From positions 1 to 30,728 of the forward strand of contig CALKKA010000191.1 in NCBI GenBank assembly GCA_937995495.1: a stretch of DNA of 30,728 bases, given 5' to 3'. Source of the stretch: an uncultured Phycisphaerae bacterium. Its GTDB lineage: Bacteria; Planctomycetota; Phycisphaerae; Sedimentisphaerales; Anaerohalosphaeraceae. Under the pieces are notes generated by a model, which did no database searches, was not told the DNA's origin, and worked only from the letters and a program-made list of their open reading frames with translations. A program made the translations under genes and the position numbers. Position 1 is the stretch's first letter. Each line of letters opens with the position of its first letter. This document shows, piece by piece, positions 13,239 through 30,728 of this stretch.

Positions 13239-13242
13239 GAAT

Positions 13243-13746
13243 ATGAGGTCATTTTTCTTTTCTGGATGGTTTTTTGCGGTATCTCTGTTGACTGTAGTTG
13301 CTGGCTGTCGTACCTCGAATATGCCTACCCCATCGGATGTTCTGCCGGAGGGGAGTTTAGCGGTTGATCGAATACGGATTTCGGCAATAACAGAGTTTGT
13401 TCCGGATCCTACTGCAGCAGACAGGGTGAACATTAAAACACTTGTCGAGTTGCTGAATGCTTCCGGATCGGCAACACAGGCACCCTGTGTCCTTCGCTTC
13501 GAATTTTATGAGTTTCACCCTCGAGCGTCCGATCCCCGTGGACGGCGTTTGTTAATCTGGCCGAATCAGAACTTAAGTGACCCTGACACGAACAAGGAAC
13601 ACTGGAAAGAATTTTTGCGTGGGTATGAATTTTTTCTCCCTCTCGAATTCAGGTTAGAAAGGGGCAGAAAATATGTCTTAGAAGCCACCTGCTTAATCAA
13701 TCAACGGCGTTATAGCGATTTTTTTAATATACAGTATCAACCTTAA
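13243..13746 (+). CDS. Hypothetical lipoprotein (167 aa)
   Basis: MRSFFFSGWFFAVSLLTVVAG-C signal peptide with lipobox; starts 4 nt after the ribBA stop; no family recognised. Confidence 0.7.
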   Translation: MRSFFFSGWFFAVSLLTVVAGCRTSNMPTPSDVLPEGSLAVDRIRISAITEFVPDPTAADRVNIKTLVELLNASGSATQAPCVLRFEFYEFHPRASDPRGRRLLIWPNQNLSDPDTNKEHWKEFLRGYEFFLPLEFRLERGRKYVLEATCLINQRRYSDFFNIQYQP

Positions 13747-16142: not shown

Positions 16143-18068
16143 ATGGCAAAAGCAAAACTTCCTGACGGAAGCATTTTAGAGGTCGCCGATGGGGCGACTG
16201 TGGCAGACTTAGCAGCTCAAATTGGGCCGGGTTTAGCGAGGGTGGCTCTTGCGGCAAAATTAAATGATAAGCTTGTTGACCTTTCAACGTCACTCAACGG
16301 TGAGGTCGATGTGGTCATTATCACTTCCAAAGACGATATGGGGCTTGAAATTACACGCCATAGTTGCGCGCATATTATGGCTGAGGCAATTTGCTCCATC
16401 TGGCCCCAAACCCAACTTGTTTATGGGCCAACGGTGGAGGGTGGATTCTACTACGACATTGATTTAGACACTCCGATCCGGCCAGAAGACTTCGAGAAAA
16501 TAGAACAGAAGATGAAAGAAATCGTCAAGGCGGACACCCCGTTTGAGCGGATTCAAATGAGCCGCGGCGATGCCAGATCAAAAATGGCCGGCGATAAGTA
16601 TAAGTTGGACAATATCGACAACGCTGCTGGTGATGTGCTGAGTTTCTATAAGCACGGCACAGATGGATTTGAAGATTTGTGCAGAGGACCGCATATCCCC
16701 CGTACTGGTAGCATTGATGCCAAGAGTTTCAAGATCATGTCTGTGGCAGGGGCGTATTGGCATGGCGATGCAACGCAGAAGATGTTGCAGCGTGTATACG
16801 GAACATGCTGGCGGAACAAGAAGGAACTGGCGGATTATCTTTTCCGATTAGAAGAGGCCAAAAAACGGGACCATCGTCTTATCGGCAAACAGATGGACCT
16901 TTTCAGTTTCCATGAGGAGGGGCCCGGATTCGCATTCCTGCATCCCAAGGGGATGAGAATTTGGAACGGGATAATTGATTTTTGGCGTGATGTGCATCAA
17001 CGCTATGAGTATGAAGAGATCAAAACGCCGATCATGCTGAATGAATCTCTGTGGCATAAATCTGGCCATTGGGATAACTATAAAGAAAATATGTATTTCA
17101 CCACAGTTGATGACATCACCTATGCGGTTAAGCCGATGAACTGCCCCGGCGGATTGCTGGTTTATAACAGCAATAAGCATTCATATCGCGAGTTGCCGAT
17201 GCGAACGGCTGAACTGGGCTTGGTACATCGTTATGAGGCCAGTGGTCAGATGCATGGACTGGTACGAGTCCGTCAGTTCACGCAGGATGACGCACACATT
17301 TTCTGCATACCTGAGCAGATTGAAAGCGAGATAGTTGGAGTGATTGATCTTGTTCAGGAAATGTACGCTGCATTCGGCTTTGAGGATTACCATGTTGAAC
17401 TCTCAACGCAACCGGAAAAGCATATTGGCTCGGATGAAATTTGGGAAACGGCGACCCATGCATTGAAGGGCGCCCTTGAGCATAAGCAAATGGATTATCA
17501 GATCAATGAAGGCGACGGAGCATTTTACGGTCCAAAGATCGACTTCCATATTAGCGACTGCCTCAACCGGTCGTGGCAGTTGGGAACTATTCAGCTTGAT
17601 TTTTCGATGCCCGAGCGGTTTGGACTGGCCTATACAGCCGCCGACAATACAGAAAAGACTCCTGTGATGATTCACCGTGCGATTCTTGGTTCGCTGGAGC
17701 GCTTTATGGGGATTTTAATTGAGCACTACGCGGGTAATTTCCCGATTTGGTTGGCACCTGAGCAGTTACGGGTATTGCCGATCAGCGAAAAAACAAATGA
17801 TTATGCCGCAGCTGTACTCAGCCAACTGAAAGAAGTGGGGTTGATTGCGACTTTGGATACATCAGACGATAAAGTTGGGGCCAAGATCGCCCGTGCTCAC
17901 GCAGATAAGGTTCCCTACATGCTGGTGGTGGGACCGAAAGAATCCGAAGAGGGCGTTGTTAATGTCCGAATGCGGCAGAGCAAGGAGACGAAAACCATTG
18001 CCTTGAGCGATTTGATATCAATTATACAGCAAAAAATTGCCGATAAATCATTGGACTTAATGATTTAG
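16143..18068 (+). CDS. thrS: Threonyl-tRNA synthetase
   Basis: TGS domain, HSCAH and DLCRGPH editing motifs, RDHR, KPMNCP, GLVRVRQFTQDDAH, GAFYGPKID, HRAILGSLERF, anticodon-binding domain. Confidence 0.98.
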   Translation: MAKAKLPDGSILEVADGATVADLAAQIGPGLARVALAAKLNDKLVDLSTSLNGEVDVVIITSKDDMGLEITRHSCAHIMAEAICSIWPQTQLVYGPTVEGGFYYDIDLDTPIRPEDFEKIEQKMKEIVKADTPFERIQMSRGDARSKMAGDKYKLDNIDNAAGDVLSFYKHGTDGFEDLCRGPHIPRTGSIDAKSFKIMSVAGAYWHGDATQKMLQRVYGTCWRNKKELADYLFRLEEAKKRDHRLIGKQMDLFSFHEEGPGFAFLHPKGMRIWNGIIDFWRDVHQRYEYEEIKTPIMLNESLWHKSGHWDNYKENMYFTTVDDITYAVKPMNCPGGLLVYNSNKHSYRELPMRTAELGLVHRYEASGQMHGLVRVRQFTQDDAHIFCIPEQIESEIVGVIDLVQEMYAAFGFEDYHVELSTQPEKHIGSDEIWETATHALKGALEHKQMDYQINEGDGAFYGPKIDFHISDCLNRSWQLGTIQLDFSMPERFGLAYTAADNTEKTPVMIHRAILGSLERFMGILIEHYAGNFPIWLAPEQLRVLPISEKTNDYAAAVLSQLKEVGLIATLDTSDDKVGAKIARAHADKVPYMLVVGPKESEEGVVNVRMRQSKETKTIALSDLISIIQQKIADKSLDLMI

Positions 18069-18128
18069 GGTAAATAATTAAATTAAGGTAATATTGGATA
18101 TAGAAAGTTATTTTGAAAGGTGAAGATC

Positions 18129-18641
18129 ATTAGCAAGGCAAATTTACGCATCAACGAGCGGATTCGAACAAGCCCAGTCCGGTTGATCGATGAAAATAAC
18201 AACCAGGTGGGACTGGTCGATGTTAAGGAGGCCCAGTTTAAAGCTCACAATCTGGGTTTGGATCTCGTGGAGGTTTCTCCAAATTCTGAGCCGCCAGTCT
18301 GTCGGATTATGGATTACGGAAAACACCTGTATGAGCAGAAGCGGAAAGTGAAGTTAAGCCAGAAAAAACAGCATACGGTTGTCCTGAAAGAAATCCGTCT
18401 GCGTCCTAAAATTGACGATCATGATCGGGACATCAAGATTGACAGGGCGGCCAAATTTCTGGATAAGGGGCACAAAGTGCAGTTTACCATGCTCTTTCGC
18501 GGGCGTGAGATGATGCATGTCGATCGTGGCCGTGAGATTATGGACGAGGTTACCGAAATACTGGCTGAGAAAGGCAAAGTCGAACGAAGACCCCAAATGC
18601 TGGGTCGGCGCATGACGATGGTGGTTTCGCCCGAAAAATAG
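18129..18641 (+). CDS. infC: Translation initiation factor IF-3 (probable ATT start)
   Basis: INERIR..VRLID, LDLVEVSPNSEPPVCRIMDYGK, KEIRLRPKIDDHD. SD-like AAGGTGA sits about 5 nt before the in-frame ATT at 18129; GTG at 18120 is the alternative. Confidence 0.95.
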   Translation: MSKANLRINERIRTSPVRLIDENNNQVGLVDVKEAQFKAHNLGLDLVEVSPNSEPPVCRIMDYGKHLYEQKRKVKLSQKKQHTVVLKEIRLRPKIDDHDRDIKIDRAAKFLDKGHKVQFTMLFRGREMMHVDRGREIMDEVTEILAEKGKVERRPQMLGRRMTMVVSPEK

Positions 18642-18691
18642 TAGTCAGTGCTTGTTTTGGCGCCTCAAAACCAAAAAATACGGATAAAGAG

Positions 18692-18720
18692 TTGACAAAA
18701 CATGACCGGTGGGGTATTGT
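18692..18720 (+). promoter_or_regulatory. sigma70-type promoter for rpmI-rplT(-pheS)
   Basis: TTGACA (18692-97), N17, TATTGT (18715-20). Confidence 0.65.
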
Positions 18721-18786
18721 GACGAATCTTTGATTTGACAAAAATCGCGATTGTTACGCATAAACACTTTTCATGAAAGAACTTAT

Positions 18787-18981
18787 ATGCCTAAGCAAAA
18801 AACACATAAGGGGTTGGCTAAGCGTGTCAAAGTAACCGGCACGGGTAAAATTAAACGCCCTAAATGCAACGGAAGCCACTTGATGAGCGGTACAAGCTCT
18901 AAAATATGTCGTGGATTGACAAAGAGCGTGCTGATCGAGGGGGCTCGTGCCAAGAAGATCAGGACTTTGCTAAACAAGTAA
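18787..18981 (+). CDS. rpmI: 50S ribosomal protein L35
   Basis: MPKQKTHKGLAKRVKVTGTGKIKR; 64 aa; position between infC and rplT. Confidence 0.93.
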   Translation: MPKQKTHKGLAKRVKVTGTGKIKRPKCNGSHLMSGTSSKICRGLTKSVLIEGARAKKIRTLLNK

Positions 18982-19004
18982 ATTGAAACCCATTTTTTGG
19001 GTCT

Positions 19005-19046
19005 AAACTGCTTCCCGGCCCCATCAGCTTGCCGTAGCAGTTTTTT
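19005..19046 (+). other. Hairpin with U-tail between rpmI and rplT (terminator/attenuator-like)
   Basis: AAACTGCT (19005-12) / AGCAGTTT (19036-43) plus inner CGGC/GCCG stem; T6 run at 19041-46. Confidence 0.5.
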
Positions 19047-19079
19047 GAGAAATCATAATCATACGAAAGGAAAGCTGGT

Positions 19080-19436
19080 ATGCCAAGAGTACGCAGAGGG
19101 GCAGCAGCCCGTCAAGCCAAGAAGAGGGTTCTCAAATCAGTTAAGGGGTATCGCGGGGCGGTTCGTACGCAAATCCGTCTTGCAAAAGAAGCCCGTACCC
19201 GTGCGGATGTTAATGCCCGTGTCGGTCGCAAATTGAAAAAACGCGACTATCGTGGTCTGTGGATTACGCGTCTGAGTGCGGCCTGCAGGATGCGCGATAT
19301 GCGTTATAGCGAATTCATCAACGGTCTGAAAAAAGCCGGGATCGAACTCAATCGCAAGATGCTTAGCGAAATAGCGATTGCCGATGAAGCTGCTTTCGAT
19401 ACTATCGTTGCCCAGGCCAAGGCCGCTCTGGCATAG
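19080..19436 (+). CDS. rplT: 50S ribosomal protein L20
   Basis: MPRVRRG..AR, KGYRG, RKLKKRDYRGLWITRLSAACR, YSEFINGLKKAGIELNRKMLSEIA. Confidence 0.97.
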   Translation: MPRVRRGAAARQAKKRVLKSVKGYRGAVRTQIRLAKEARTRADVNARVGRKLKKRDYRGLWITRLSAACRMRDMRYSEFINGLKKAGIELNRKMLSEIAIADEAAFDTIVAQAKAALA

Positions 19437-19489
19437 AGTGGGTATCGAATACATTTTTCTGCTTTGAACCCCGTTAAGGATTGGCGCGA

Positions 19490-20479
19490 ATGCTGGAGCA
19501 GTTCACACAGATTGGTAACGATGCCCGCACCGAATTAGCGAATATTACGGATGCTGAGTCTTTAGAAGCGTTTCGTATTCAGTATCTCGGGCGTAAAGGA
19601 TCTGTGACCGGGATGCTCAGCATGATCGGCAAACTGCCCAAAGAACAGAAGCGAGAAGGGGGTCAACTCGCAAACACAATCAAGAAGGAAATCACCCAGG
19701 CATTCGAAGCGTTAAAGGCCGAACTTGCGTCTTCGACAAAAAAATCCAAACCAATCGTTGATGTTACGCTGCCCGGTATTGGCACGGGACAGGGCAAATC
19801 GCATATTATTTCACAGGCGGTTTCTGAGCTACTGGAAATCTTTGGACGGATGGGATTTGACATCGCATATGGACCGGAAGTTGAGGACGAGTGGCATAAC
19901 TTCATCGCCTTGAATATACCGCCGGAACATCCTGCACGGGATCCAATTGACAATTTCTATGTCGATGAGTCAACACTGCTCCGAAGCCAGACATCGACAA
20001 TTCAGATTCGAGTGATGGAACACACAAAACCCCCGATCCGTGTGGTAGCGCCCGGGAGAGTCTATCGGCCTGATACAGTGGACGCGACGCACATGTTCAT
20101 GTTCCACCAACTTGAGGCGCTGGTCGTTGATGAAGGCATTACGATGGTGGACCTGAAAAGCAGTGTCAACCAGTTCATCCATACCTTTTTCGGAGCCGAT
20201 ACCCAATGGCGTTTTCGGCCGAGTTTTTTCCCGTTTACTGAGCCAAGTTGTGAAGTCGATATCCTTTGGGTGGATAAATCCGGAAATGAAAACTGGATGG
20301 AGATTGGGGGCTGCGGGATGGTCGACCCGAATGTTTTCGACGCGGTCGGCATTGACAGCGAAAAATATACCGGGTGGGCTTTTGGCTTTGGTATCGAGCG
20401 GTTGGCGATGAAAAAATATGGCATCACCGATATCAGAAATCTTTTCGAAAACGATATTCGCTTCCTGAAACAGTTTTAA
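19490..20479 (+). CDS. pheS: Phenylalanyl-tRNA synthetase alpha subunit
   Basis: YLGRKG, HPARD, LLRSQTS, PGRVYR.D..DATH, FHQLE, RFRPSFFPFTEPS, GCGMV, AFGFGIERLAM. Start ATG 19490 with AAGGA 9 nt upstream. Confidence 0.97.
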   Translation: MLEQFTQIGNDARTELANITDAESLEAFRIQYLGRKGSVTGMLSMIGKLPKEQKREGGQLANTIKKEITQAFEALKAELASSTKKSKPIVDVTLPGIGTGQGKSHIISQAVSELLEIFGRMGFDIAYGPEVEDEWHNFIALNIPPEHPARDPIDNFYVDESTLLRSQTSTIQIRVMEHTKPPIRVVAPGRVYRPDTVDATHMFMFHQLEALVVDEGITMVDLKSSVNQFIHTFFGADTQWRFRPSFFPFTEPSCEVDILWVDKSGNENWMEIGGCGMVDPNVFDAVGIDSEKYTGWAFGFGIERLAMKKYGITDIRNLFENDIRFLKQF

Positions 20480-20525: not shown

Positions 20526-21554
20526 TCACGAATAATTAACTAATACCCGTTTAGCGGTTTCCGAATTGATTAGATTATTAGCGAGCAGTTTCTCAATGGA
20601 TTCAGCCATTGTAGACATGCCGTGTTTTTTGCCCGTGTCGATAACTGTTCGCAGGTGATAGCCGCCTCTTCGGCGAAGAATATTTTTTGCCCCCGTCGTT
20701 GAGGTCATGATTTCACATGCTACACGCTGGCCTCCGGTGACCAGCGGCAGCAATTCCTGATGGATCACACCTTGCAGCGTCTCAGCCAGCAGAAAGCGGA
20801 TTGTGTTTTCACCCTCATCGGGTGCATAACTAAGGATGCGTTCGATCATCTTATCGATCGAAATGACATGCAACGTTGAAAGTACCATAATACCGGTCTC
20901 GGCCGCAGTCAATGCGATTTTAATGGTTTCGTAATCTCGCATCTCACCAATAGCAATAACATCCGGGTCCTGGCGGAGAGCCGCACGCAAGCCCGTGGCA
21001 AATGTTTTAGTGTCTCGTCCGACTTCACGTTGACGGACGATCCCTTTTTTGTTTGTATGGACATACTCGATGGGGTCTTCAATGGTAACAATATGCTTTT
21101 TCTGCGTGGTATTGATGTGATCGATCATTGCTGACATCGTGGTTGTTTTACCCTGGCTGGTGCTACCAGTGATGAGAACCAGTCCTTTATCCTTTAGGGC
21201 TAGCGTTTTTACTATCTCTGGAAGAAATAATTCATCCGGTGTTTTTGGCTCTCCGGAAAGAACACGAACAGTCGCTCCCACAGCCCCATTAAAATAGCCT
21301 ACATTTATACGGAATCGTGAGCCGTTATAGGCCAGCATCAAATCAAAATCGAGATTACTTTCGAAGGCATCAATTTGTTCGGGCGTCAGCATCTCGTAAC
21401 ACAGTTCTCGACTTTTTTCATGGGAAAGCGAGTCTTCTGTTACCGGTTTGAGTTTGCCCCCGATACGAAACTGTACCGGCGCTCCTGCACAGATATGAAT
21501 GTCCGTGGCATGCTGCTCAACGGCGAAATCAAATAATTGATTGCGGTTCTGCAA
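20526..21554 (-). CDS. pilT: PilT/PilU-family type IV pilus ATPase (divergent)
   Basis: ATDIHI, RFRIN, Walker A GSTSQGKT, Asp box TIEDPIE, QREVGRDT, ALRQDPD..IGEMRD, TAAETG..STLH. TTG start with AGGAG SD. Confidence 0.85.
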   Translation of the reverse strand: MQNRNQLFDFAVEQHATDIHICAGAPVQFRIGGKLKPVTEDSLSHEKSRELCYEMLTPEQIDAFESNLDFDLMLAYNGSRFRINVGYFNGAVGATVRVLSGEPKTPDELFLPEIVKTLALKDKGLVLITGSTSQGKTTTMSAMIDHINTTQKKHIVTIEDPIEYVHTNKKGIVRQREVGRDTKTFATGLRAALRQDPDVIAIGEMRDYETIKIALTAAETGIMVLSTLHVISIDKMIERILSYAPDEGENTIRFLLAETLQGVIHQELLPLVTGGQRVACEIMTSTTGAKNILRRRGGYHLRTVIDTGKKHGMSTMAESIEKLLANNLINSETAKRVLVNYS

Positions 21555-21639
21555 CGTTATCTCCTGAACATTTAGCCTCCGCTATACTCGACACGCAAAA
21601 GTGTGTGGCCCCAGCTGGATATCGATTAATAATGTGCAG

Positions 21640-22563
21640 TCAGTCTGGATCTTTGAACGAGACTATCCACTCCGGCCAGTCGGGCAGCGGTGCGGAGGTG
21701 TTGTAAGTTTTATGCCATTTCAGCCGCCATAGTTCTTTCGGGCTGATGGATTTGACCGTCCCGTCCATCACCAGGACATTCAGCTTTTCTTTATGACGGT
21801 TCACGGTGAACCGCTGCATGTGGTTCATGTGTCTGTCTGGCCAGTCGTAGGCAACTGATTCGGGTTCTGGCTCATTGACAAAACCGGGCATCTCCATCAT
21901 CGGAGGCATCGGACCGTTTGGCTCGCTCATTGGCGGCGGAATCATGCCCGGCATACCGGGTATTTGACCCATGGGAGCATCATAGCCGGATCGATTTTCC
22001 TGACCGAATTGGCCTTGTTCTTCTGGTGGCAGGTCAGTGGATTCGGGCCGCCCGGTGTACCAGAGTGCATCGGCCATGAGCGGGATTTTTGAACCGCCGT
22101 AATGGTCCATGGTTCGCCAACTGTTGGATGTGTCGTGGCCTTCAGTTTCCAGAACCTCTTTGGGCGTGTCGCCCAGCCAACCATTGAGGCCGTAGCTGCC
22201 GGAGAAGATATCTTCGATTTTACCGCCCCATCCCGAACGAACTGAGGGACAGGCTTTAAGTTTTGGCACTTGATAGTAAGATTTCAAGGCATAGGGCCAT
22301 AAATCTGAATTTCTGCTTGAGTGTGTTACGTCGTTGGGGTCGGTGTAGTCATAATAACCTGCAAAGAAATGGCTGTCATGATCTTCGGTATAAAGTGTCA
22401 GGATTAGACCCCACTGGGACAGATTGGCCATGCAGACTACTTGCTGTGCCCGTTTTTTAATCGCAGACAGTGCGGGCATGAGAATGGACAGCAACATCGC
22501 AATGATAGAGATCACGACAAGCAACTCGATCAATGTGAATCCGTTTTTGTTTTGAGTTTTCAT
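21640..22563 (-). CDS. Large type IV prepilin-like protein with C-terminal H-X9-DG motif (planctomycete DUF1559/SBP-like pilin class)
   Basis: MKTQNKNG|FTLIELLVVISIIAMLLSILMPAL class III signal; RH-KEKLNVLVM-DG; C-terminal LKELW-like ..LWRLKWH..WPEW; SD GGAG. Confidence 0.88.
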   Translation of the reverse strand: MKTQNKNGFTLIELLVVISIIAMLLSILMPALSAIKKRAQQVVCMANLSQWGLILTLYTEDHDSHFFAGYYDYTDPNDVTHSSRNSDLWPYALKSYYQVPKLKACPSVRSGWGGKIEDIFSGSYGLNGWLGDTPKEVLETEGHDTSNSWRTMDHYGGSKIPLMADALWYTGRPESTDLPPEEQGQFGQENRSGYDAPMGQIPGMPGMIPPPMSEPNGPMPPMMEMPGFVNEPEPESVAYDWPDRHMNHMQRFTVNRHKEKLNVLVMDGTVKSISPKELWRLKWHKTYNTSAPLPDWPEWIVSFKDPD

Positions 22564-22585
22564 TATTTATTCACTCCTTATTTTT

Positions 22586-22963
22586 TCAGTGTTTCAGTAC
22601 AAATTTCTGTGGATGTCTATATGAAAAGCGCCTGTCCTCTGCATGGCCGGTCACGGTGAATGTCGATCGATCACCTGCCTGTGAAATCAGCTCGATGGTA
22701 CAGGTAATGGTCTTATTTTCCTGATTAATCTCTAAGAGACGGGGTTGATCGCTGCTGATTGTGGCCTTTGGGTTCTTTTCGAGCCATGTGATCCCGCTTT
22801 CACAGGCAAACCGGGCGTGTGTTTTCAGGGCGGCCCGTCGTGTATTCGTCAGTATCTGCCGGCTGTTGGATGTCAAAACCACGCTTGCCATCCCCAGCAG
22901 CGGAATCAGTGCAATGACCAGCAGCAGGATGAATCCTTTTTGTCGGTTGGTTCGTTTCATCAC
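22586..22963 (-). CDS. Minor pilin, GspK/PilX-like (no Glu+5)
   Basis: Basic leader KRTNRQKG|FILLLVIALIPLLGMASVVL lacking E5, the pattern of GspK/PilX/ComGG-type subunits; translationally coupled to its neighbours. Confidence 0.6.
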   Translation of the reverse strand: MMKRTNRQKGFILLLVIALIPLLGMASVVLTSNSRQILTNTRRAALKTHARFACESGITWLEKNPKATISSDQPRLLEINQENKTITCTIELISQAGDRSTFTVTGHAEDRRFSYRHPQKFVLKH

Positions 22964-23442
22964 GGTTGAGCCTTTTTGAAAAATACGACGGTCTGCTTAA
23001 AACTAATTTGTTCTCTATCGGGGTCTTGTTGCTGATTCCATGTGGTCAGTTCGACGGCGTAAGGTCGGTCGCTTTGACTCCAGAGTCTGGTCTCTGTTTT
23101 GAGATGCGGAAGCTGCCAGATGTATTCCGCGCCCGCGTCATTCATGGCAGGGCGGCGGGCGATGTGTCCGTCGCTCAGCGTATAACGCACCATTCCGCCC
23201 GGTTGCTCCAGTGTCAGCACGCCGCCGGCAAGACCGGCAATGCGGTTGGAGCGCTCGATATCGTTTCTGAGTTGATCAAGGGCTTTCATAGAGCGGTTCA
23301 GTGTCTGGCAGACGCGGGCTGAATGCGGGATTTCCGAAACCAGCGTTCGCATCGGGCGAACGGACAACCCCATCAGGACTATGATCATGACGATGATCAC
23401 AAGCATTTCGGTCAGGGCGTAGGCGCGGCGTTTTATCTTCAT
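22960..23442 (-). CDS. Minor pilin, GspJ/PilW-like
   Basis: MKIKRRA|YALTEMLVIIVMIIVLMGLSV class III signal with E5; later LDQLRNDIERS helix typical of J/W-type subunits. Confidence 0.65.
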   Translation of the reverse strand: MKIKRRAYALTEMLVIIVMIIVLMGLSVRPMRTLVSEIPHSARVCQTLNRSMKALDQLRNDIERSNRIAGLAGGVLTLEQPGGMVRYTLSDGHIARRPAMNDAGAEYIWQLPHLKTETRLWSQSDRPYAVELTTWNQQQDPDREQISFKQTVVFFKKAQP

Positions 23443-23825
23443 TGGCCGTCTCCTTCTGCCGCCGGAAGATAGCGTGTAAGGTAGATCTGGACATTATTAT
23501 GCTTCACCTTTTTTCTGAGTGTCAGGTCAATCCTCTGTAGTCCCTGCCATTGACCGATGCCGTCGCTGGTTTCGATGGTGCAACTCACACCCGGCCAGAG
23601 TTTCTTAAATGTTGTCTCCTCTATCGGTTTGCCCGTTGATGTGATGGCATCGATCTGGGCCTGTCCAGCATTGTGGCAGGTGTGCCTGGCCCAGAGATTT
23701 TTGTTCAGCTTTCCAAATGAAACGCTCAATGCGACAAGCACCCCGATAATGGTGGCAATCACGCTGATGGCGACTACCAGTTCAATGCTTAAAAGACCTT
23801 TTTGTTTTCTATGTTTTTTCATCAT
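23439..23825 (-). CDS. Minor pilin, GspI/PilV-like
   Basis: MMKKHRKQKG|LLSIELVVAISVIATIIGVLVAL class III signal with E5; 128 aa; start 1 nt after the upstream stop. Confidence 0.65.
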   Translation of the reverse strand: MMKKHRKQKGLLSIELVVAISVIATIIGVLVALSVSFGKLNKNLWARHTCHNAGQAQIDAITSTGKPIEETTFKKLWPGVSCTIETSDGIGQWQGLQRIDLTLRKKVKHNNVQIYLTRYLPAAEGDGQ

Positions 23826-23826
23826 A

Positions 23827-25311
23827 TTATTGCGGTATCGTATATTGCAAAGCAACGTGTATTATGCTGAAAACCCCCATAAACATGGCGAAAACGACAT
23901 ATCCGACACACAGGCCCAGACACAGAATTATGACCGGTTCAGCGGCAGCGGTAAAAACATTTTTGCGGTAGTTATATTGATAATGATAAAGCGTTTCAAG
24001 ACTTTCGAGAATTTGAGGTGTATTACCTTTGTTAATCTTTTCGTCCATGGCCCAGCAAAGCGCTTTATCAAGACCGCAGATCTTTGCGGATTGAGCGATA
24101 TTGTCGCCGGCTTCAATTTTATTCAGCCATTTCTCCAGTCGTTTCTGATAGCATCGGTTGACATCCAGTCCCAAGGCATGCCTTACGATTATATTAACCG
24201 GATATCCCGCCGTAATCCCTGCACGCAAAGTTTGTGCAAGATATATGTTAGCAAATGTCTTCTCAAACCAATGCAACAAGGGTATATTCCACTTAATCCG
24301 ATCCCCGAGGCGGGATAGCAAACGGGGGCTCTCCGGGTTTCGCTTACAAGACAGAAGATATGCTTTAGATACCAAAAGTATAAAAACGGGCATCATGAAT
24401 AACAATGCGTTAAGGCCATTTCTTCCCAACATCCAGGAGGAGAAGTTCAGTAATGATTGAGTTGCAAAGGGAAGACCGGCTCGTCCGTCACTTATATCAG
24501 AAAGCACTTCTGAAAAAGTGGGAACAATGAAAATCATCAGGCCCATCATAATAAAGAAAGCGACAGTCAAAACGGTTGTCGGGTATATTAAAGCGTCGGA
24601 TTTTTCGATGTTTTTCGAGCCAATCTTTTCAGCGGCTTCTTTCTGGAGCGATTCGATTGCCCTGGGCAATTGGTCCATCTTTTCTGCGGTCGAAATAGAG
24701 GCCAGGATTTCGGAAGGGCATTTCGGGTATCCGCGTCGCAGAGCCTCCGACAGCGGCCAGCCCTGTGTGAGCCAGTGAGCGATATTATTAAAAACAGCGG
24801 CCTCTTTTTTCTTTTTGCCGTGTGCGGCGGTCGTCAGGGCCATCGGCAGGGGCAGTGATTGTCGAATGCACATTGCAATCGTCGAGATGATATCAACCGC
24901 CAAACCATATTTTCGAGCCTGGGCCCACTGGTAGCTTCCCATTAAGAATATGCCAAACAGGACAGGGCTAAAGAGTTGGAAAACGGCTATGAAGACAGCT
25001 AATATAATCAGATACTTAACAATTGTTAGAACAAAGCCGGTCACGGCTCTGTACCAAGGTGTTTCCAAACGGCTCGATGACGGTCCCCAGTGAATGATGC
25101 TGAATGCTGTCGGTACCAAAATGATGGAAAGAGCATACATTATAATTGCTTCATCGGGGATTCTTCCGCTTCCATCAAAACTGATAAGACCGGAAAAAAT
25201 AATCCATGCTGTAGTTGGTATTAATAAGATTAAGCCAATACCCGGTTTTTTCCATGCAAGGATGATGAAGCCCAAAAAGATAATAATATTTATTAAATAG
25301 AGTGTCCACAT
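23827..25311 (-). CDS. GspF/PilC-family platform protein with an extra N-terminal multi-TM domain
   Basis: About 135 aa hydrophobic N-terminus, then two GspF repeats (SLPLPMAL..GWPLSEAL..LPRAIESL; LIYP..FIVPTF..LP; EPVIILCLG..VFAMFMGVF). Confidence 0.75.
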   Translation of the reverse strand: MWTLYLINIIIFLGFIILAWKKPGIGLILLIPTTAWIIFSGLISFDGSGRIPDEAIIMYALSIILVPTAFSIIHWGPSSSRLETPWYRAVTGFVLTIVKYLIILAVFIAVFQLFSPVLFGIFLMGSYQWAQARKYGLAVDIISTIAMCIRQSLPLPMALTTAAHGKKKKEAAVFNNIAHWLTQGWPLSEALRRGYPKCPSEILASISTAEKMDQLPRAIESLQKEAAEKIGSKNIEKSDALIYPTTVLTVAFFIMMGLMIFIVPTFSEVLSDISDGRAGLPFATQSLLNFSSWMLGRNGLNALLFMMPVFILLVSKAYLLSCKRNPESPRLLSRLGDRIKWNIPLLHWFEKTFANIYLAQTLRAGITAGYPVNIIVRHALGLDVNRCYQKRLEKWLNKIEAGDNIAQSAKICGLDKALCWAMDEKINKGNTPQILESLETLYHYQYNYRKNVFTAAAEPVIILCLGLCVGYVVFAMFMGVFSIIHVALQYTIPQ

Positions 25312-25312
25312 C

Positions 25313-26512
25313 CTACATCAGCACCTGTATCATTTTGACCATGGGCAGGAACATTGCCAGAACGATGGTTCCCACGGTTCCGCCAAGAAATATGATTAAG
25401 AGTGGTTCCAGCAGACCCTGCATTTGCGATTGCAGCGAAAAGGTTTTGGCGGCGTACATTCGCCCCAGGCTGTTAAGGTTTTCTTTCAGTTCGTTCCTTT
25501 GGGCCCCCAGCTGTACCGAATACAAAAACAGCCGGGGAATCGTTTTGCAGCCCATCCCCGCTTCGAGGAAGTTGGAACCTTCATTAAGTTGGGCGGCCAG
25601 TATCCCGCAGTCCTGTTTGAGCAGTTCACTGCTGGAGGACTGGCCGGACAGTTCGACAGCATCGTTGAGTGTGCATCCGGCGTTGATCAAAACGGACATG
25701 CACTCGGAAAAACGGGCCAGTAAACCGTTCCTGAATACTCGGCCGATCAGTGGCAGTGATCGGAAAAAGTGTTCTTTGGTGCGCCGGCCTGCGGTGTTAA
25801 ACGACAGCGATTTCCAACAGAATACGGTCACCCCAACAACAATGCCAAGTCCCAGCCAGAAGTCCCACACATGCGCAGATACATCCAGGACAAATTCTGT
25901 TAAAAAAGGTAATCCAGCTTTACCGCCAGACATATCATAAAGAACCTCACCAAAGGTTGGCACAACAAATAAAAGTAAACCTGAGACGATCAAAGCTGCC
26001 GCCACCAGCACAACCGCTGGGTAAGTTAACGACTCGATGATAATCCGTTTCGTCCGCAGCTCAACCTGTAAATTCCGGTTAAGATTGGTCAGCATCTCGC
26101 TCAGTCGCCCGGTTTCCACACCGGATTTAAGGATAAGTCCATACAGTGGCGGAAAATCCTTTTGCCGTTTCTGTATGGCCTGATCAATGGGCAGTCCCTG
26201 TTCCAGATCATTGGCCACACCGTTAATCAGCGACCGCATCTTTGCCGACCCGGCGTCCTGTGCCAGCTCTCGCAGTCCCTGTTCCAGCGGAATTCCCGCT
26301 TTGGTCAGCGAAGCAAGCTGTTCATTGAACAGGACGAACTCATTGTGTCCGATGCTTTTGGGAGCCATCGATTCTTTGGTCTTTTCCAGTTCTGTGACCT
26401 GCAAGCCCATCTCGCTAAGGGATGACTTGGCCTGCTCGATGTCACCGGCTTCAATCGTGCCGGTCATCAAACGTCCGGCAGTAGTAACGGATCGATATTC
26501 AAATAATGCCAT
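25313..26512 (-). CDS. GspF/PilC-family platform protein
   Basis: MALFEYRSVTTAG..GTIEA; QLASLTKAGIPL..L; GVETGRLSEML; LTYP..FVVPTF; LLEPLLIIFLGGTVGTIVLAMFLPM. Canonical PilC/GspF. Confidence 0.9.
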   Translation of the reverse strand: MALFEYRSVTTAGRLMTGTIEAGDIEQAKSSLSEMGLQVTELEKTKESMAPKSIGHNEFVLFNEQLASLTKAGIPLEQGLRELAQDAGSAKMRSLINGVANDLEQGLPIDQAIQKRQKDFPPLYGLILKSGVETGRLSEMLTNLNRNLQVELRTKRIIIESLTYPAVVLVAAALIVSGLLLFVVPTFGEVLYDMSGGKAGLPFLTEFVLDVSAHVWDFWLGLGIVVGVTVFCWKSLSFNTAGRRTKEHFFRSLPLIGRVFRNGLLARFSECMSVLINAGCTLNDAVELSGQSSSSELLKQDCGILAAQLNEGSNFLEAGMGCKTIPRLFLYSVQLGAQRNELKENLNSLGRMYAAKTFSLQSQMQGLLEPLLIIFLGGTVGTIVLAMFLPMVKMIQVLM

Positions 26513-26539
26513 CGTTTCATTCCTTAATGATAAATCACC

Positions 26540-27688
26540 TCATGTCCCACAAACTCGTTTGATCTCGGTGCTCGTTGTGATGCCCTGATTGATTAACCTT
26601 CTGCCGTCCTGTATCAGTTTCATGTGCCCACGGGATTCAAAGGTTGCTTCCAAACCTTCCATATCGCTTTGCTTAAGGATCGTCTTGCGAACTTGCCCGT
26701 CCAACTCGACCATTTCGGCCAGCAGGACCCGGCCGTGGTATCCGGTATTGTGACATTGTTTACAGCCGCGGGGTTCGTAGCTGCCGTCCGGTTTTTTTTC
26801 TTTGCATTGATCGCAAAGTTTCCGCACGAGCCGCTGGTTGAGGATCGCCGAAACACCAGAGGTCACCTGATACGGTTCGATATTCATTTCCAGCAGGCGA
26901 AGCAGGGCACCGCTGCAATTTCCGCTGTGCATCGTACTCATCAGCAGGTGGCCGGTCAGTCCGGCCTCGATGGCGATCTTTGCGGTTTCAGCGTCACGGA
27001 TTTCCCCGATCATCAGCACTTCGGGGTCTTGGCGCAGCAGTGAACGCAGGGCAGTAGGAAATGTCATTTCTCTATGTGGTTCAATCTGAACCTGTGTTAC
27101 CCCCGCAATGGCTCTCTCGACCGGGTCTTCCAGTGCGACAATGCTTTTGCCGGAAAATTGCTGGAGGATGTATCTCAGCAGGGCCGCCAGTGTGGTGCTT
27201 TTGCCGCTTCCGGCGGGGCCGGTCAACAGCAGAATGCCCTGATTTCGGCAGGCAAATTGCATCAGCGCCGATTCAATCGTCGGATTAAAGCCCAGTTTAT
27301 CCAGCTCGGTCAGCGTATCATTTTCATAGAATATCCGAACCACCGCCCGCTGACCGTGAATGGTTGGGAAAACCGCCAACCGCTTGTCGATGACTTTGCC
27401 GGAGTCGGATATGACCAATTGGTCCTGCGTGCCTTCGATACGGCCTTCCTGTGGGATGTCATTGCGATAAGTCAGCAGATTGCCCAATACTTTCAGGCGG
27501 GAGATGACATTATCACGAATGGCGGCGGGTAGCGTCTCGAACGTCTTTAAGGTACCATCCATGCGGTATTTAACCTGCAATTCGGTGCTGGTCGGTTCAA
27601 AGTGGATGTCACTGGCTCCGAATTGGACGGCCTCTTCAAGAATGCTGTCCACCAGTTGGGCTATATTGGGTTGCCCAGAGTGTTTCAT
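26540..27688 (-). CDS. GspE/PilB-family extension ATPase, short form lacking the N1 domain
   Basis: GASDIHFEP, RMDGTL, PQEGR, GPAGSGKSTT, LEDPVE, LLRQDPEVLMIGEIRD, TGHLLMSTMH, QRLVRKLC, CxxC..CxxC Zn motif, GYHGR; only 382 aa. Confidence 0.9.
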   Translation of the reverse strand: MKHSGQPNIAQLVDSILEEAVQFGASDIHFEPTSTELQVKYRMDGTLKTFETLPAAIRDNVISRLKVLGNLLTYRNDIPQEGRIEGTQDQLVISDSGKVIDKRLAVFPTIHGQRAVVRIFYENDTLTELDKLGFNPTIESALMQFACRNQGILLLTGPAGSGKSTTLAALLRYILQQFSGKSIVALEDPVERAIAGVTQVQIEPHREMTFPTALRSLLRQDPEVLMIGEIRDAETAKIAIEAGLTGHLLMSTMHSGNCSGALLRLLEMNIEPYQVTSGVSAILNQRLVRKLCDQCKEKKPDGSYEPRGCKQCHNTGYHGRVLLAEMVELDGQVRKTILKQSDMEGLEATFESRGHMKLIQDGRRLINQGITTSTEIKRVCGT

Positions 27689-27737
27689 AAGTTATTTTCA
27701 ATAATGGAAATAAACCAGTTAGATTCGATTCGTTTCT

Positions 27738-27771
27738 ATATTTAAGACGTTCTCGATGGAAAAATGTTACC
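27738..27771 (-). promoter_or_regulatory. ECF-type promoter driving the gspE-pilT operon
   Basis: Minus strand GGTAAC (27771-66), N16, CGTCTTAAATAT (27749-38), preceded by a T-tract; AAC-N16-CGT is the general ECF promoter pattern. Confidence 0.75.
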
Positions 27772-27804
27772 TGAAAATAAAAAAAACTTTTTTTGAGGTA
27801 TTTT

Positions 27805-27838
27805 GGTAATATAATGGTTACTAAAGCGTCTTAAATAT
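27805..27838 (+). promoter_or_regulatory. ECF-type (auto)promoter driving ECF #2 and its anti-sigma
   Basis: GGTAAT (27805-10), N16, CGTCTTAAATAT (27827-38); mirror copy of the minus-strand promoter. Confidence 0.75.
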
Positions 27839-27867
27839 CAGAAGCTTCGATGATACTTAGGATAACC

Positions 27868-28443
27868 ATGGCCATTACTCCGACAAGTTTAGGGTTAACA
27901 TTTGACCTGACGCAGGCCGAATCGGTTCAGAAAAGTCAGCGCTGGGTGCTGGTGACGATGCAGGAATTCGGTCCGGCACTGGTGACGATGCTCTGGCGGA
28001 TTCTGGGTAATGAAGAAGATGTTTGCGATGCTTATCAGGATACGTTCCTTCGACTCGCTCACCTGCCGGATAAGAACAAGCCCGCCAATGTTCGCTCTTA
28101 CCTGTTTCGGACGGCTTCAAATGTCGCCATTTCAGTATTGAGGCATAAGCAGTTGCATCGTAAGCACCAGCGTGCCATTTTAGAAAAATATGAAACTCCA
28201 CAACATGATTTTGTCAGGGACCTCGATGCACCGGCTTTGCAAAAACGGCTTCGCGAGGCGATCGCTGAATTACCGGAGTATCTTGGCGATGTGATCATCC
28301 TGCGGGACCTTGCCCAGATGCCGTATCCGCAGGTTGCGCGGATCTTGGGGATTCGCACTGCCGCGGCCAGGGTGTACCGCCATAAAGCGATTAAGCTACT
28401 GGCATCGTGGATGTCAAAATCAGAAAACCGGGAACCATTATGA
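27868..28443 (+). CDS. ECF sigma-70 family sigma factor (#2)
   Basis: EEDVCDAYQDTFLRL..VRSYLFRTASN (region 2); LPEYLGDVIILRDLAQMPYPQVARILG..AARVYRHKA (region 4). Start ATG 27868 (AGGA SD) or 27850. Confidence 0.9.
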   Translation: MAITPTSLGLTFDLTQAESVQKSQRWVLVTMQEFGPALVTMLWRILGNEEDVCDAYQDTFLRLAHLPDKNKPANVRSYLFRTASNVAISVLRHKQLHRKHQRAILEKYETPQHDFVRDLDAPALQKRLREAIAELPEYLGDVIILRDLAQMPYPQVARILGIRTAAARVYRHKAIKLLASWMSKSENREPL

Positions 28444-28952
28444 AAACCGATACAAACACAAATCAATGCCGCAGGACGCGAAGGGGCCGATTGGGCCTGT
28501 GGGATGCGTTCCGAACACGACTTCTGGAGCGGTTGGGCGATCATGTCGCTGAATGCCCGCGGTGTCAAAAACGGCTGGCGACTGTAAATCGTGTCGAACT
28601 GGGATTGATGCTCATAAAAAGCCAGCCCCAGCAGATCGGGCTACTGTCGCGTGCCAATAGGCAGGCGCTGGATGGACTGAAGCATTCATTACGACATGCA
28701 CCCAAATCCGTTATTTTGCGAGGGGTCAATTCTGACATGAATCGGCTGGAAAAAATGCGTCCGGGCCTGGAGCGGTTGCTGAATGCTGCGGCGTGTGTTT
28801 TTGTAGTTTTGATGATTAAAACCGGGGTGTCCAACTCTCTGCTGAATTACCGGGAACAGGGAGAGACTGTCATCCATAACTATTATGCTCGTAATCTCGA
28901 TAGCCAAATCTTTGATGAAATATTCCCCATAGATTCTTCCTCCACCGGCTAA
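28440..28952 (+). CDS. Zinc-binding (ZAS) membrane anti-sigma factor for ECF #2
   Basis: ATGA-coupled; HVAECPRC = HxxxCxxC with an upstream Cys; single hydrophobic segment LLNAAACVFVVLMI; about 45 aa C-terminal tail. Confidence 0.78.
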   Translation: MKTDTNTNQCRRTRRGRLGLWDAFRTRLLERLGDHVAECPRCQKRLATVNRVELGLMLIKSQPQQIGLLSRANRQALDGLKHSLRHAPKSVILRGVNSDMNRLEKMRPGLERLLNAAACVFVVLMIKTGVSNSLLNYREQGETVIHNYYARNLDSQIFDEIFPIDSSSTG

Positions 28953-29135: not shown

Positions 29136-30728
29136 CTATGGATGCCCCTGATGACACTTTCCTTCAATTGTCTTAAGCAGGCATGCGGAAGTTTCATTGA
29201 TCCGCTCCCAACTTGTGTAACTGCGATCAATGATCCCCAGTGATTCAAAAATGTCTTCCAGGTCAGCGCGTAATTCAAACGCCTCGTATGCGTCGGTCGA
29301 TTTTATGCGGCAGGCTTTTTTCATTGCTGCAGCAAAAGCTTTTTTGTCACAAAATAGCATCGTCATCTGATAATATTTTTCAAATGCGAACGCTTTACAT
29401 CTTTTCGTACTTGTGAGCATCTCAAATGCTTTTTCTGACTGTCCGTTATCTGAGAGGCAGATTGACAGCTTATACAATACTCGGTAATTCATTGGGTTTT
29501 GAGAGATTGAATTTTCGAATGCACAGATGGCTGCCTGAAGCCTGTTTTCATTCATCATCAAAATACCATATTTATTATAAACATCCGCCTGTGCTGAAGT
29601 ATTCTTAATTTTATCCTGATAGGCATGGATTACATGCTCAATCGTCACAATCTTTTTATCGGACTCTTTGCTGATGGTGTTATTTTCGTCTACAATTGAC
29701 TGGAACTGCAGTGTTGCTGCTTCTGTAAAGAGCAGGACACTGTTTTTCTGTATCGAAGACGCCAGTGAAAGGGTTTGCCTTGATTCTTCCTCTAAACCAC
29801 GCCGTTTTTGGGCAATTGCCAATCCCATATAGGCATCCAGTATCTCGTCGTTAATATCTGAGGCCTTATTGAATTCTTCCGCCGCAAGCGAAAAACGCTG
29901 ATTCCTCAAATAATGAGTACCCAGTTTTATCCTGGCTTCCAGCGAACTGGGTTGCAGGAGGATTGCATTCTCATAGCACGCGATCGCTTCCGATTCCTTT
30001 TCCCATTGGCTATAAACATCTCCCATCCGGATCAATAAGTCCTGTGACGGGCCCACCTGCTCAATCGTCCATTTGATCGCTTCCAGGGCCTGTTCAAACA
30101 TATCGCATTCAACAAGGGATTGTATTTCTTCGTCTCTTGCGGAGTCCATAAAATTATCAGGATGAGAAAGGATTCCAAGATTAAATGTATCAATGGCCTG
30201 TTCTGCTTTGTTGGATTCAAGATACAACTCTGCCAGCAGGATGATGGATGAGATGTCATCGGGATGTTCGGAGGTCAGTATTTCATACTCTTTGACCGCC
30301 CTGTCCAACTGCCCTTCTTTGAGGTAAATTGCGGCCATTCTCTGTCGCGGCAATTGAAGAAAGCTCTTGAATTTGATGCAATCCTGGTAAAACTCAAGGG
30401 CCTGCTCGATTTGCCCCAACCGCTCGTAACAATACCCCATCACATAAAGCGCCATCGTATTTGAGGGTTGTCTCAAATACACGCTCTGGGCCTGTTCAAT
30501 CGCTTCTTTTAGTTCATTTTGCAGGAGACAAACGGCTGCAGCGGCCATACGACCCAGAACGCATTCCGGAAAATCACTCAGATACTCACACGTCTTGTTT
30601 TCTGCCTGAATCAGTTCTCGATTTGCCAGGCAATCATGGATCATGATAAGAAAGCTAGTGCGTTCAGATGGCTCCTCTTGTGAAAGTTTTCGGCCGAGCC
30701 AGTGCCGGACAACTTCTGCGGTGTTAAC
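29136..30728 (-). CDS. Tetratricopeptide-repeat protein (5' end beyond right edge)
   Basis: Multiple TPRs (ALYVMGYCYERLGQIEQALEFY, LIRMGDVYSQWEKESEAIACYENA, YNKYGILMMNENRLQAAICAFENS). I read the frame as open from 30644 to the window end, so the true start lies outside. Confidence 0.85.
   Translation of the reverse strand, partial: VNTAEVVRHWLGRKLSQEEPSERTSFLIMIHDCLANRELIQAENKTCEYLSDFPECVLGRMAAAAVCLLQNELKEAIEQAQSVYLRQPSNTMALYVMGYCYERLGQIEQALEFYQDCIKFKSFLQLPRQRMAAIYLKEGQLDRAVKEYEILTSEHPDDISSIILLAELYLESNKAEQAIDTFNLGILSHPDNFMDSARDEEIQSLVECDMFEQALEAIKWTIEQVGPSQDLLIRMGDVYSQWEKESEAIACYENAILLQPSSLEARIKLGTHYLRNQRFSLAAEEFNKASDINDEILDAYMGLAIAQKRRGLEEESRQTLSLASSIQKNSVLLFTEAATLQFQSIVDENNTISKESDKKIVTIEHVIHAYQDKIKNTSAQADVYNKYGILMMNENRLQAAICAFENSISQNPMNYRVLYKLSICLSDNGQSEKAFEMLTSTKRCKAFAFEKYYQMTMLFCDKKAFAAAMKKACRIKSTDAYEAFELRADLEDIFESLGIIDRSYTSWERINETSACLLKTIEGKCHQGHP

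Follow-up and report, generated by a model that had tools for sequence, protein, structure and literature searches.

A predicted, separately regulated type IV filament assembly cassette in Phycisphaerae-type Planctomycetota

A 30.7-kb stretch of DNA from an uncultured Phycisphaerae bacterium (contig CALKKA010000191.1, positions 1 to 30,728; hereafter the window) carries what appears to be a cassette for type IV filament assembly that is specific to the Phycisphaerae-type lineage of Planctomycetota and separately regulated; we assign this reading a probability of roughly 0.65. Any specific output of the cassette, whether secretion, uptake, or adhesion, is much less probable than that. The conserved unit consists of an anti-sigma and a sigma gene on one strand and, on the other, genes for an assembly ATPase (E), two platform proteins (F and F′), and three small pilins (m138, m160, and m125). 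This core, common to the relatives, is smaller than the eight-gene module first noted in a sequence-only reading of the window, which is one flavour of the cassette with a large prepilin (L307) and a PilT-family ATPase (T) added. Type IV filament machines are classed by gene content and phylogeny, and the cassette is described below on both counts.

The core genes of the window, with the two predicted promoters of an extracytoplasmic function (ECF) type that lie between sigma and E, are as follows.

28440 (ATG) or 28407 (GTG)..28952, plus strand: membrane anti-sigma of the ZAS type, 170-181 aa; H-x3-C-x2-C motif
27850..28443, plus strand: ECF-type sigma, 197 aa; Pfam Sigma70_r2 and Sigma70_r4_2; NCBIfam sigma70-ECF, 68.2 bits against a cut-off of 42.9
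27805..27834, plus strand: predicted ECF-type promoter facing sigma, GGTAAT-N16-CGTCTTAA
27742..27771, minus strand: predicted ECF-type promoter facing the ATPase operon, GGTAAC-N16-CGTCTTAA
26540..27688, minus strand: E, assembly-type ATPase, 382 aa; Pfam T2SSE, 349.7 bits
25313..26512, minus strand: F, canonical platform with three transmembrane segments, 399 aa; Pfam T2SSF twice
23827..25311, minus strand: F′, divergent second platform, 494 aa; Pfam T2SSF twice, 88.4 bits
23439..23825, minus strand: m138, first of the pilin trio, about 128 aa; prepilin-type N-terminus KQKG/LLSIE
22960..23442, minus strand: m160, second of the trio, 160 aa; prepilin-type N-terminus KRRA/YALTE
22586..22963, minus strand: m125, third of the trio, 125 aa; prepilin-type N-terminus RQKG/FILLL, no Glu5

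All eight filament genes that the sequence-only reading had called co-oriented, including L307 and T, were found again as open reading frames (ORFs) on the minus strand, at the same positions between 20526 and 27688, and its description of them as mostly coupled is borne out from F through m125, where each junction is either a 1-nt gap or a 4-nt overlap. F and F′ are separated by 1 nt, as are F′ and m138 provided that m138 starts, as it probably does, at the ATG at 23825, 1 nt past the F′ stop; m138 and m160 overlap as ATGA, and m160 and m125 as GTGA. The other spacings are wider: 27 nt between E and F, 22 nt between m125 and L307, and 85 nt between L307 and T.

Relatives were collected with a profile of 21 F′ homologues, which gave 184 confirmed places in a one-genome-per-species collection; the best 80 of these 184 places, each with at most 10 kb of flank, make up with the window a set of 81 loci. 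Over these, 1,280 ORFs were called, labelled by phmmer with the window proteins, and then clustered. A component was counted only at loci where the contig end does not cut off its position, and the resulting counts are lower bounds, since they come from single-query phmmer and a crude ORF caller.

F homologue: present at 65/73 loci
E homologue: present at 63/68 loci
Sigma homologue, divergent from the ATPase: present at 39/49 loci
Anti-sigma homologue: present at 37/46 loci
m138 homologue: present at 47/78 loci
m160 homologue: present at 59/75 loci
m125 homologue: present at 54/70 loci
L307 homologue in cis: present at 9/60 loci
PilT homologue in cis: present at 7/59 loci

The arrangement thus reappears in 80 other loci, mostly of Phycisphaerae/Sedimentisphaerales, and is more than a chance grouping; gene order is kept in the relatives, as the counts for F, E, and sigma attest, and the loss of that order, which the sequence-only reading had named as grounds for giving up its proposal, was not seen. 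The low counts for L307 and PilT are the reason why the conserved unit is taken to end with the three small pilins. A decayed remnant was also considered and ruled out, the genes all being intact and conserved over 80 loci. By record title, 78 of the 80 related loci belong to Planctomycetota, among them 36 to Phycisphaerae and 29 to 'uncultured Pirellulales'. These last 29 metagenome-assembled genomes (MAGs; among L012-L074) interleave with Sedimentisphaerales and Phycisphaerae MAGs in the trees of the cassette proteins, and their taxonomic labels look unreliable on that evidence.

The sequence-only reading had given the module its own ECF sigma and anti-sigma, and the pair has the features expected of one: regions 2 and 4 are both present in sigma, and the adjoining ORF has a ZAS motif and one membrane segment. 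If the anti-sigma starts at 28440, its start overlaps the sigma stop as ATGA. The motif H-x3-C-x2-C (HVAECPRC in the window) is kept in 51/51 homologues, and a single hydrophobic segment at residues 119-146 leaves an extracytoplasmic tail of only about 35 residues; Pfam and NCBIfam gave nothing usable for this protein, even at E-values up to 10. In the properties compared, the two proteins agree with an ECF sigma and a class I (ZAS) anti-sigma, with zinc and sigma binding as predictions.

The same reading had described the module as switched on by a specific envelope signal. The spacer between sigma and E strongly supports control by the adjacent sigma, at the level of predicted promoters. The motif TAAY-N15-17-CGTC faces E in 43/49 related loci (0.84 in shuffles) and sigma in 45/49 (0.83 in shuffles), and twin motifs facing both ways occur in 40/49 (0.01 in shuffles), where the null consists of mononucleotide shuffles and the 49 are the other loci with a readable sigma–E spacer. 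The consensus is identical on both sides: G-TAAC-(A/G)T ... (G)CGTCTTA. In the 30.7-kb window the stricter pattern GTAAY-N15-17-CGTCTT has two matches only, both in the spacer, with 0.03 expected. Over the 1,244 kb of loci, 85 of 117 motif matches lie directly upstream of E or sigma, and about a dozen of the 32 others, as read from their coordinates, also fall in the sigma–E spacer, beside mis-called ORFs (for example in L004, L026, L031, L050, L051, L058, L062, L064, L065, and L070). An ECF sigma usually transcribes from its own promoter, and the twin of this self-type promoter that faces the filament operon is, of all the sequence evidence, the most telling for the predicted control of the cassette by the adjacent sigma. 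No recurrent target beyond E and sigma came out of a motif search for other regulon members in the 10-kb flanks of all loci.

A second ECF-type sigma gene, RpoE/SigW-like (123-133 bits), lies elsewhere in the window (13773-14387, plus strand). Its end is overlapped by 4 nt by a 334-aa ORF without a family match (14384-15388), which may be its anti-sigma to judge by this arrangement, and it is preceded by a 192-aa ORF (13168-13746), also without a family match.

The ATPase E resembles the motors of several type IV filament systems and falls short of the cut-offs for all of them. It scores 376.5 bits with the NCBIfam model for GspE (TIGR02533, cut-off 630.25; aligned model positions 109-485 of 486), 357.6 bits with PilB (TIGR02538, cut-off 675.65; alignment beginning at model position 180), 220.2 bits with ComGA (cut-off 300; matched end to end, positions 2-266 of 267), 144 bits with the PilT family, below its cut-off, and 35.4 bits against a cut-off of 373 with the TadA-family model. 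Because the GspE alignment begins only at model position 109, E is without the N-terminal (N1E/MshEN) domain of GspE and PilB. The Pfam scan of E gave no MshEN domain, and the full-length ATPase paralogues of related loci carry one; median lengths are 393 aa for the cassette ATPases versus 618 aa for these other, MshEN-bearing paralogues. A CxxC...CxxC motif is present in 62/62 cassette ATPases and in 0/8 PilTs. A quick maximum-likelihood search over 85 ATPases, with two type IVb pilus (T4bP) ATPases as the root, placed all 62 cassette ATPases and one from a rearranged cassette in a single clade (SH-aLRT 97). The sister group (95) takes in E. coli GspE, pO157 EtpE, HofB, a Neisseria PilF-like protein, PilT/PilU/YggR references, five other planctomycetal paralogues, and eight cassette-linked PilTs. 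In the ATPase phylogeny, which the sequence-only reading had put forward as a check, the cassette ATPases therefore stand as one clade apart from the few references and from the MshEN paralogues of 571-642 aa, and the trees show, for the proteins sampled, a coherent family distinct from its paralogues.

F and F′ both contain two T2SSF repeats and differ in how far they depart from known platforms. F scores 237 bits with GspF (cut-off 424) and 115.2 bits with ComGB (cut-off 240), and its three hydrophobic segments are positioned as in E. coli GspF and HofC. F′ scores 100 bits with HofC and 81 bits with GspF (cut-off 424) and has 4-5 extra N-terminal hydrophobic segments within residues 1-111. 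It has 172 homologues; among the best 120 of these 172, most are 475-500 aa long (some entries are shorter or partial), the closest is 81% identical, most are below 70%, and every source name that gives a taxon points to Planctomycetota or a group within it (Phycisphaerae, Planctomycetales, Anaerohalosphaera). In a tree of 64 platforms, F forms one clade (26 rows, support 98) and F′ another (29 rows, support 100), whose stem measures 3.65 changes per column, and the two clades branch internally in parallel subclades, as would co-evolving platform paralogues, which we take them to be on this pattern; the tree does not resolve where the two clades branch with respect to GspF, HofC, and the Neisseria PilG-like protein.

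The three small pilins are recognizable mainly by their N-termini. None gave a usable Pfam or NCBIfam match, even at E-values up to 10, and none matched the E. coli GspI, J, or K references at the sequence level; when pilin profiles were aligned by hhalign to the single E. coli GspG-K and PpdD sequences, the helices alone aligned, except for L307 against GspG. Across 42 aligned homologues of m138 the glycine at -1 never varies, and conservation of Glu5 reaches at least 90%. A PDB sequence search with m138 matched solved pilins with the N-terminal helix alone (E about 0.1), and the ESM Atlas placed it only in small N_methyl clusters, one with T2SSI in 23% of members. In m160 the glutamate at precursor position 12 is at least 90% conserved; an AlphaFold2 model from 47 homologues (predicted local distance difference test score, pLDDT, 90.1) has as its ten best Foldseek matches in the PDB only XcpW, EpsJ, and GspJ (probability 0.97-1.00, TM-score 0.41-0.51, E 0.009-0.08), and on this predicted structure m160 is a minor pilin with a GspJ-like fold. 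The model of m125, from 42 homologues (pLDDT 91.8), has a long helix and a four-stranded sheet. Its top Foldseek matches are 51-63-column sheet fragments of methyltransferases, and its whole-chain matches are of the GspI type: a 116-residue chain of an XcpGHIJK model (TM-score 0.59/0.63) and EpsI (0.58-0.63, normalised by target). A PDB sequence search with the m125 profile was without a match; the PDB searches with the three pilin profiles reached the N-terminal helix weakly at best and have no bearing on the globular parts. Position +5 of m125 is hydrophobic in all 42 homologues in which the signal was found (14/56 had no motif match). A hydrophobic residue in place of Glu5 marks the first, tip-most subunit of a filament, such as GspK, and m125 is a minimal pilin that is a candidate for the first or tip subunit. 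The I/J/K-like trio of the sequence-only reading is thus upheld in its middle member, with a GspJ-like predicted fold, and in the absence of Glu5 from its third, as in GspK; it does not hold for the rest, m125 having only 125 aa and no GspK fold and m138 being pilin-like by its N-terminus only. The most fitting description of the trio is that of a minimal priming set, with one J-like subunit, a cap lacking E5, and one more small pilin, and not that of a true I/J/K set. A complex prediction for the soluble parts of the trio with m125 as partner gave 0.76, and 0.61 in a control in which chain 2 was replaced; it is not used as evidence in either direction.

In the window the cassette is followed on the same strand by the two add-on genes.

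21640..22563, minus strand: L307, GspG-like prepilin, 307 aa; Pfam N_methyl; G/FTLIE; H-KEKLNVLVM-DG near the C-terminus
20526..21554, minus strand: T, PilT-family ATPase, 342 aa; TIGR01420 PilT/PilU, 361 bits against a cut-off of 319.1

The N-terminal 135 residues of L307 align with E. coli GspG by hhalign (97.2% probability, 123 columns), and an RH-x-LNVLFxDG block is conserved among its cassette-linked homologues. Several homologues carry the JGI label 'prepilin-type processing-associated H-X9-DG protein', and one carries PF07596; L307 itself was unmatched by PF07596 at E up to 10 and by TIGR04294 at E up to 0.01. The wider family numbers 3,269 matches at E up to 0.001. T is about 40% identical to the annotated PilT of Legionella, Acinetobacter, and Pseudomonas, and together with seven other cassette-linked PilTs it forms one clade (support 100) beside the PilT/PilU references. 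L307 also has a Pro/Met/Gly-rich low-complexity insert, PGMPGMIPPPMSEPNGPMPPMMEMPG, at residues ~196-232, which is found as well in L004 and is absent or shorter in other homologues.

The sequence-only reading had counted the large pilin and PilT as parts of the module, and here it gave way: as core parts both were rejected on the counts of 9/60 and 7/59, which mark each as a lineage-specific add-on. A more radical view is that the eight genes are not one unit at all, the cassette ending at the third small pilin and L307 and PilT coming from other systems. Those same counts speak for this view, as do the spacings ahead of L307 (22 nt) and of T (85 nt), the conservation of PilT, far better than that of the cassette, and the size of the L307 family. 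Yet L307 was found in every locus of the window's own subclade that can be read downstream, and in five of these (L005 and L009-L012) it is located between small pilin genes; PilT adjoins or overlaps the third pilin gene in the other loci where the junction was read (in L022 the end of m125 and the start of T both fall at 12758) and lies downstream of the cassette in two separate subclades; and terminator-like sites, in a scan for terminators and sigma-70 promoters, are at chance level between genes, with none separating L307 from T. We consider it somewhat unlikely that the two genes belong to other systems altogether. L307 is the sole candidate for a bulk subunit encoded in cis, and PilT has the look of a conserved gene of single-copy type in the lineage, one that was twice placed beside the cassette and for which a functional link is plausible.

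The 'self-contained' label of the sequence-only reading does not hold, since a prepilin peptidase was found in no locus (two references, 0 matches in 81 loci) and a GspG-like major pilin is absent in cis from most cassettes. Its remark that the window has no secretin, PilMNOP, GspCLM, or prepilin peptidase does hold, by Pfam on the 25 window ORFs and by phmmer with E. coli and other references. Around the related cassettes a secretin was found within 10 kb in 1/81 loci (three secretin references against the 1,280 ORFs), and the HofQ reference matched this one protein only. GspC/L/M families were not seen in Pfam scans of the 25 window ORFs, 34 neighbour representatives, and 25 further flank ORFs; the 34 neighbour proteins (one representative for each of 33 recurrent clusters and one extra member of cluster 7, X341) are unrelated housekeeping proteins by Pfam with one exception, a PilM_2+PilN fusion in L064.

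The secretin is in L021 (18477-19967), has 496 aa with N0, Secretin_N, and Secretin domains (Pfam Secretin 144.9 bits), and lies 7 kb downstream of the cassette on the opposite strand, adjoining a 218-aa ORF that weakly matches GspG (region 17628-19967). A second, more canonical pilus cluster lies a few kb from F′ in three loci: L058 (13430-21360), L064 (13254-21370), and L065 (13977-21993). It comprises an MshEN ATPase of 571-611 aa (called in L058 and L065 but not in L064), an F of its own, several N_methyl pilins, a PilM-PilN fusion, which is the only form in which PilM or PilN was found, and, in L064 and L065, a DUF7305 protein. L058 and L064 retain no more of the cassette genes than F′ and the anti-sigma (sigma was called in L064 only), yet the twin promoter motifs persist. 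The make-up of this second cluster indicates that these bacteria possess a conventional pilus system besides the cassette.

Several points weigh against a distinct filament cassette. The references in the ATPase tree are two from type II secretion systems (T2SS), two of the type IVa pilus (T4aP) type, and three of the PilT type, all from Proteobacteria, with the two T4bP ATPases; both the ATPase and the platform tree come from 'quick' searches with flagged long branches; and a separate clade would, as far as the trees go, be compatible with a place within the T2SS or T4aP radiation once that is well sampled. References for GspC/L/M/O and for HofM/N/O/P had 0 matches each in 81 loci, and single-sequence phmmer is insensitive for GspC/L/M and for PilN/O/P. 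The Foldseek E-values for m160 are weak, at 0.009 or worse. Phycisphaerae homologues of PilT at 80-93% identity are numerous, the best 120 all being at least 67% identical, and because PilT is common in the lineage and shows much stronger conservation than F′, it may serve another pilus system and adjoin the cassette by an accident of gene order. Finally, most cassettes have no major pilin in cis, for which reason we infer, rather than observe, that a filament is built.

An ordinary T2SS or T4aP spread over several loci, with its secretin, alignment proteins, peptidase, and major pilin encoded elsewhere, would account for part of this evidence. E and F score highest with the GspE and GspF models, the order from ATPase through platform to pilins is that of a T2SS, the predicted fold of m160 is GspJ-like, the N-terminal half of L307 resembles GspG, and the last pilin, m125, has no Glu5, as in GspK. 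There is also the secretin 7 kb from one cassette, and the PilM-PilN fusion with further pilins a few kb away in three loci, and T4aP systems are commonly split across several loci (Denise et al. 2019, PMC6668835). Against this, the cassette differs from a T2SS in having no secretin or GspC/L/M in cis, no GspK-sized protein or GspH, PilT in the window, and a predicted ECF control. E, F, and F′ fall well short of every equivalog cut-off, those of GspE and GspF included. The N-terminal domain of EpsE binds the GspL-type partner EpsL, and E is without the corresponding domain. The MshEN ATPase and the F of the PilMN clusters both group apart from the cassette clades; only that one locus of 81 has a secretin close by; and a second platform, with extra membrane helices, and a dedicated ECF switch are both foreign to described T2SS or T4aP. 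Compared with a T4aP in particular, E is below the PilB cut-off and PilM/N/O/P and PilQ were not found with the cassette; the point of likeness is T of the window, which passes the PilT cut-off (linked in 7/59 other loci). An ordinary system dispersed in this way is in our judgement unlikely.

The Com pilus of monoderms (ComGA/ComGB/ComGC-GG) offers another comparison, and the cassette might be a Com-like DNA-uptake pseudopilus that spans only the periplasm and is induced by an alternative sigma. The likenesses lie in a short ATPase without N-terminal domains (the ComGA model being matched end to end), a gene set pared down to ATPase, platform, and small pilins that lacks a secretin or alignment complex, and a dedicated alternative sigma driving expression, here as a prediction. 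The differences are that the host is a diderm planctomycete, that a Com system has one platform where the cassette has two, that ComGA (220 against 300 bits) and ComGB (115 against 240) scores are under their cut-offs and under the GspE and GspF scores, and that ComEA-, ComEC-, and DprA-type DNA-uptake families were not seen near the cassette in the ORFs scanned with Pfam (25 + 34 + 25 of 1,280). We regard a Com-like system as very improbable. With the Tad/Flp pilus the cassette shares two adjacent co-evolving platform paralogues, like TadB and TadC, which are described by Denise et al. (PMC6668835) as half-size products of a fission; by contrast, F and F′ each retain both T2SSF repeats, E is of the GspE/PilB type (TadA-family 35 bits versus GspE 376), and the cassette pilins are not Flp-type.

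The cassette thus misses the profile and gene-content marks of T2SS, T4aP, Com, and Tad that were compared, apart from the PilT of T4aP, and by analogy would work most like a pseudopilus motor of the T2SS/Com type. The sequence-only reading had recognized no described type IV filament subtype in it, and a search of the literature, at the level of main texts, likewise found no description of the cassette, which is therefore a variant of the type IV filament superfamily not found described before. Reduced systems without recognizable GspLM and minor pilins were classed as 'generic' by Denise et al. (2019; PMC6668835), and the cassette would probably fall into that class; the class is a catch-all and not a described subtype, and the string 'Planctomycet' is absent from the main text. 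As a regulatory parallel, ECF32 (HrpL-type) sigmas have type III secretion system (T3SS) genes as their conserved context and likely regulon (PMC7826278), and the cassette sigma is likewise an ECF sigma in the context of a secretion-type machine; the cassette machine is a type IV filament and not a T3SS, and its regulator is a ZAS anti-sigma and not a two-component system. The words T2SS, pilus, pilin, and GspE are absent from the main text of that ECF reclassification (PMC7826278).

Under the reading that we prefer, a separately regulated filament cassette, an envelope or redox cue would inactivate the anti-sigma, and the freed sigma would transcribe its own gene and the cassette operon. F and F′ could join in a mixed platform, which would link the short ATPase to the growing filament and replace partners of the GspL/PilM type, and the three small pilins could prime or nucleate a short filament. 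The bulk subunit would be a GspG-like H-X9-DG pilin, L307 encoded in cis in the window's subclade and presumably one encoded in trans elsewhere, while the prepilin peptidase, and any outer-membrane channel, would be supplied from elsewhere in the genome. Where PilT is adjacent, it might retract the filament.

L307 connects the cassette to a large protein family. Proteins with N_methyl and DUF1559 (SBP_bac_10)/H-X9-DG features are greatly expanded in Planctomycetes, which encode dozens to a hundred of them, and the passages on them in two papers (PMC8567305, PMC10632474) give their function and their assembly route as unknown; those passages report the expansion and membrane fractionation and name no assembly machine. 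L307 is like these proteins in its prepilin signal and H-X9-DG block, and it differs in lying inside a filament-assembly operon, most members being scattered around the genome (PMC8567305). One orthologue group inside such an operon is a concrete lead on an orphan family. It suggests a bolder proposal, which we hold to be a long shot: that the H-X9-DG/DUF1559 prepilin-like proteins so expanded in Planctomycetota are assembled by the cassette, as a machine dedicated to them and induced by a signal. The motor, switched by the ECF sigma, would consist of the short ATPase with a heteromeric F/F′ platform, and the three minimal pilins would prime it. It would then build the large GspG-like subunits into a filament that can retract and that works with no secretin or alignment complex belonging to it, and this filament might remain in the enlarged planctomycetal periplasm for the capture or uptake of macromolecules. 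If true, this would amount to a new type IV filament subtype and to a function for one of the phylum's largest orphan families.

Independently of that proposal, the separately regulated cassette combines four features that we have not found described together: two full-length platforms, one with extra helices; an ATPase without the usual docking domain; alignment and secretin genes not in cis; and a dedicated ECF switch with readable twin promoters, which makes the filament system directly testable. The two platforms bear on how platform proteins are arranged, a question for which a trimeric PulF has been reported (PMC10790770).

Other genes recur around the cassette or fill the window. One or two genes of about 340 aa (X341) lie between E and F in 27/64 loci (for example L005 7512-8768 and L024 7680-8705), and an extra gene of about 560 aa (X564) is present in 6/49 loci (L020 6086-7780 is an example listed from the loci with extra genes); both families have signal-peptide-like N-termini and no Pfam family, neither occurs in the window, and an X341 protein falls in the ESM Atlas only into unnamed planctomycetal clusters. 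Just past the anti-sigma, about ten loci have genes for an Hsp70-like protein (~516 aa) and a protein with a C-terminal GrpE domain (~460-520 aa), for instance L017 (2942-4492), L058 (4360-5898), L032, L033, L044, L056, L065, and L074; they are not in the window, and their recurrence could reflect lineage synteny or a functional link. The remaining window genes are housekeeping: thrS-infC-rplT-pheS, glutamate synthase, glutamine synthetase III, NAD synthase, and ribBA. A TPR-repeat protein of at least 530 aa (29136-30728, minus strand), convergent with the anti-sigma, extends beyond the window; no ORF of a related locus was labelled as its counterpart, and it probably stands outside the cassette. 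Directly 3′ of the cassette and co-oriented with it, four close relatives of the window (L005, L010, L011, and L012) encode a protein of about 1,840 aa with a Glyco_transf_5 domain (a glycosyltransferase of the starch-synthase type), as at 13673-19198 in L011.

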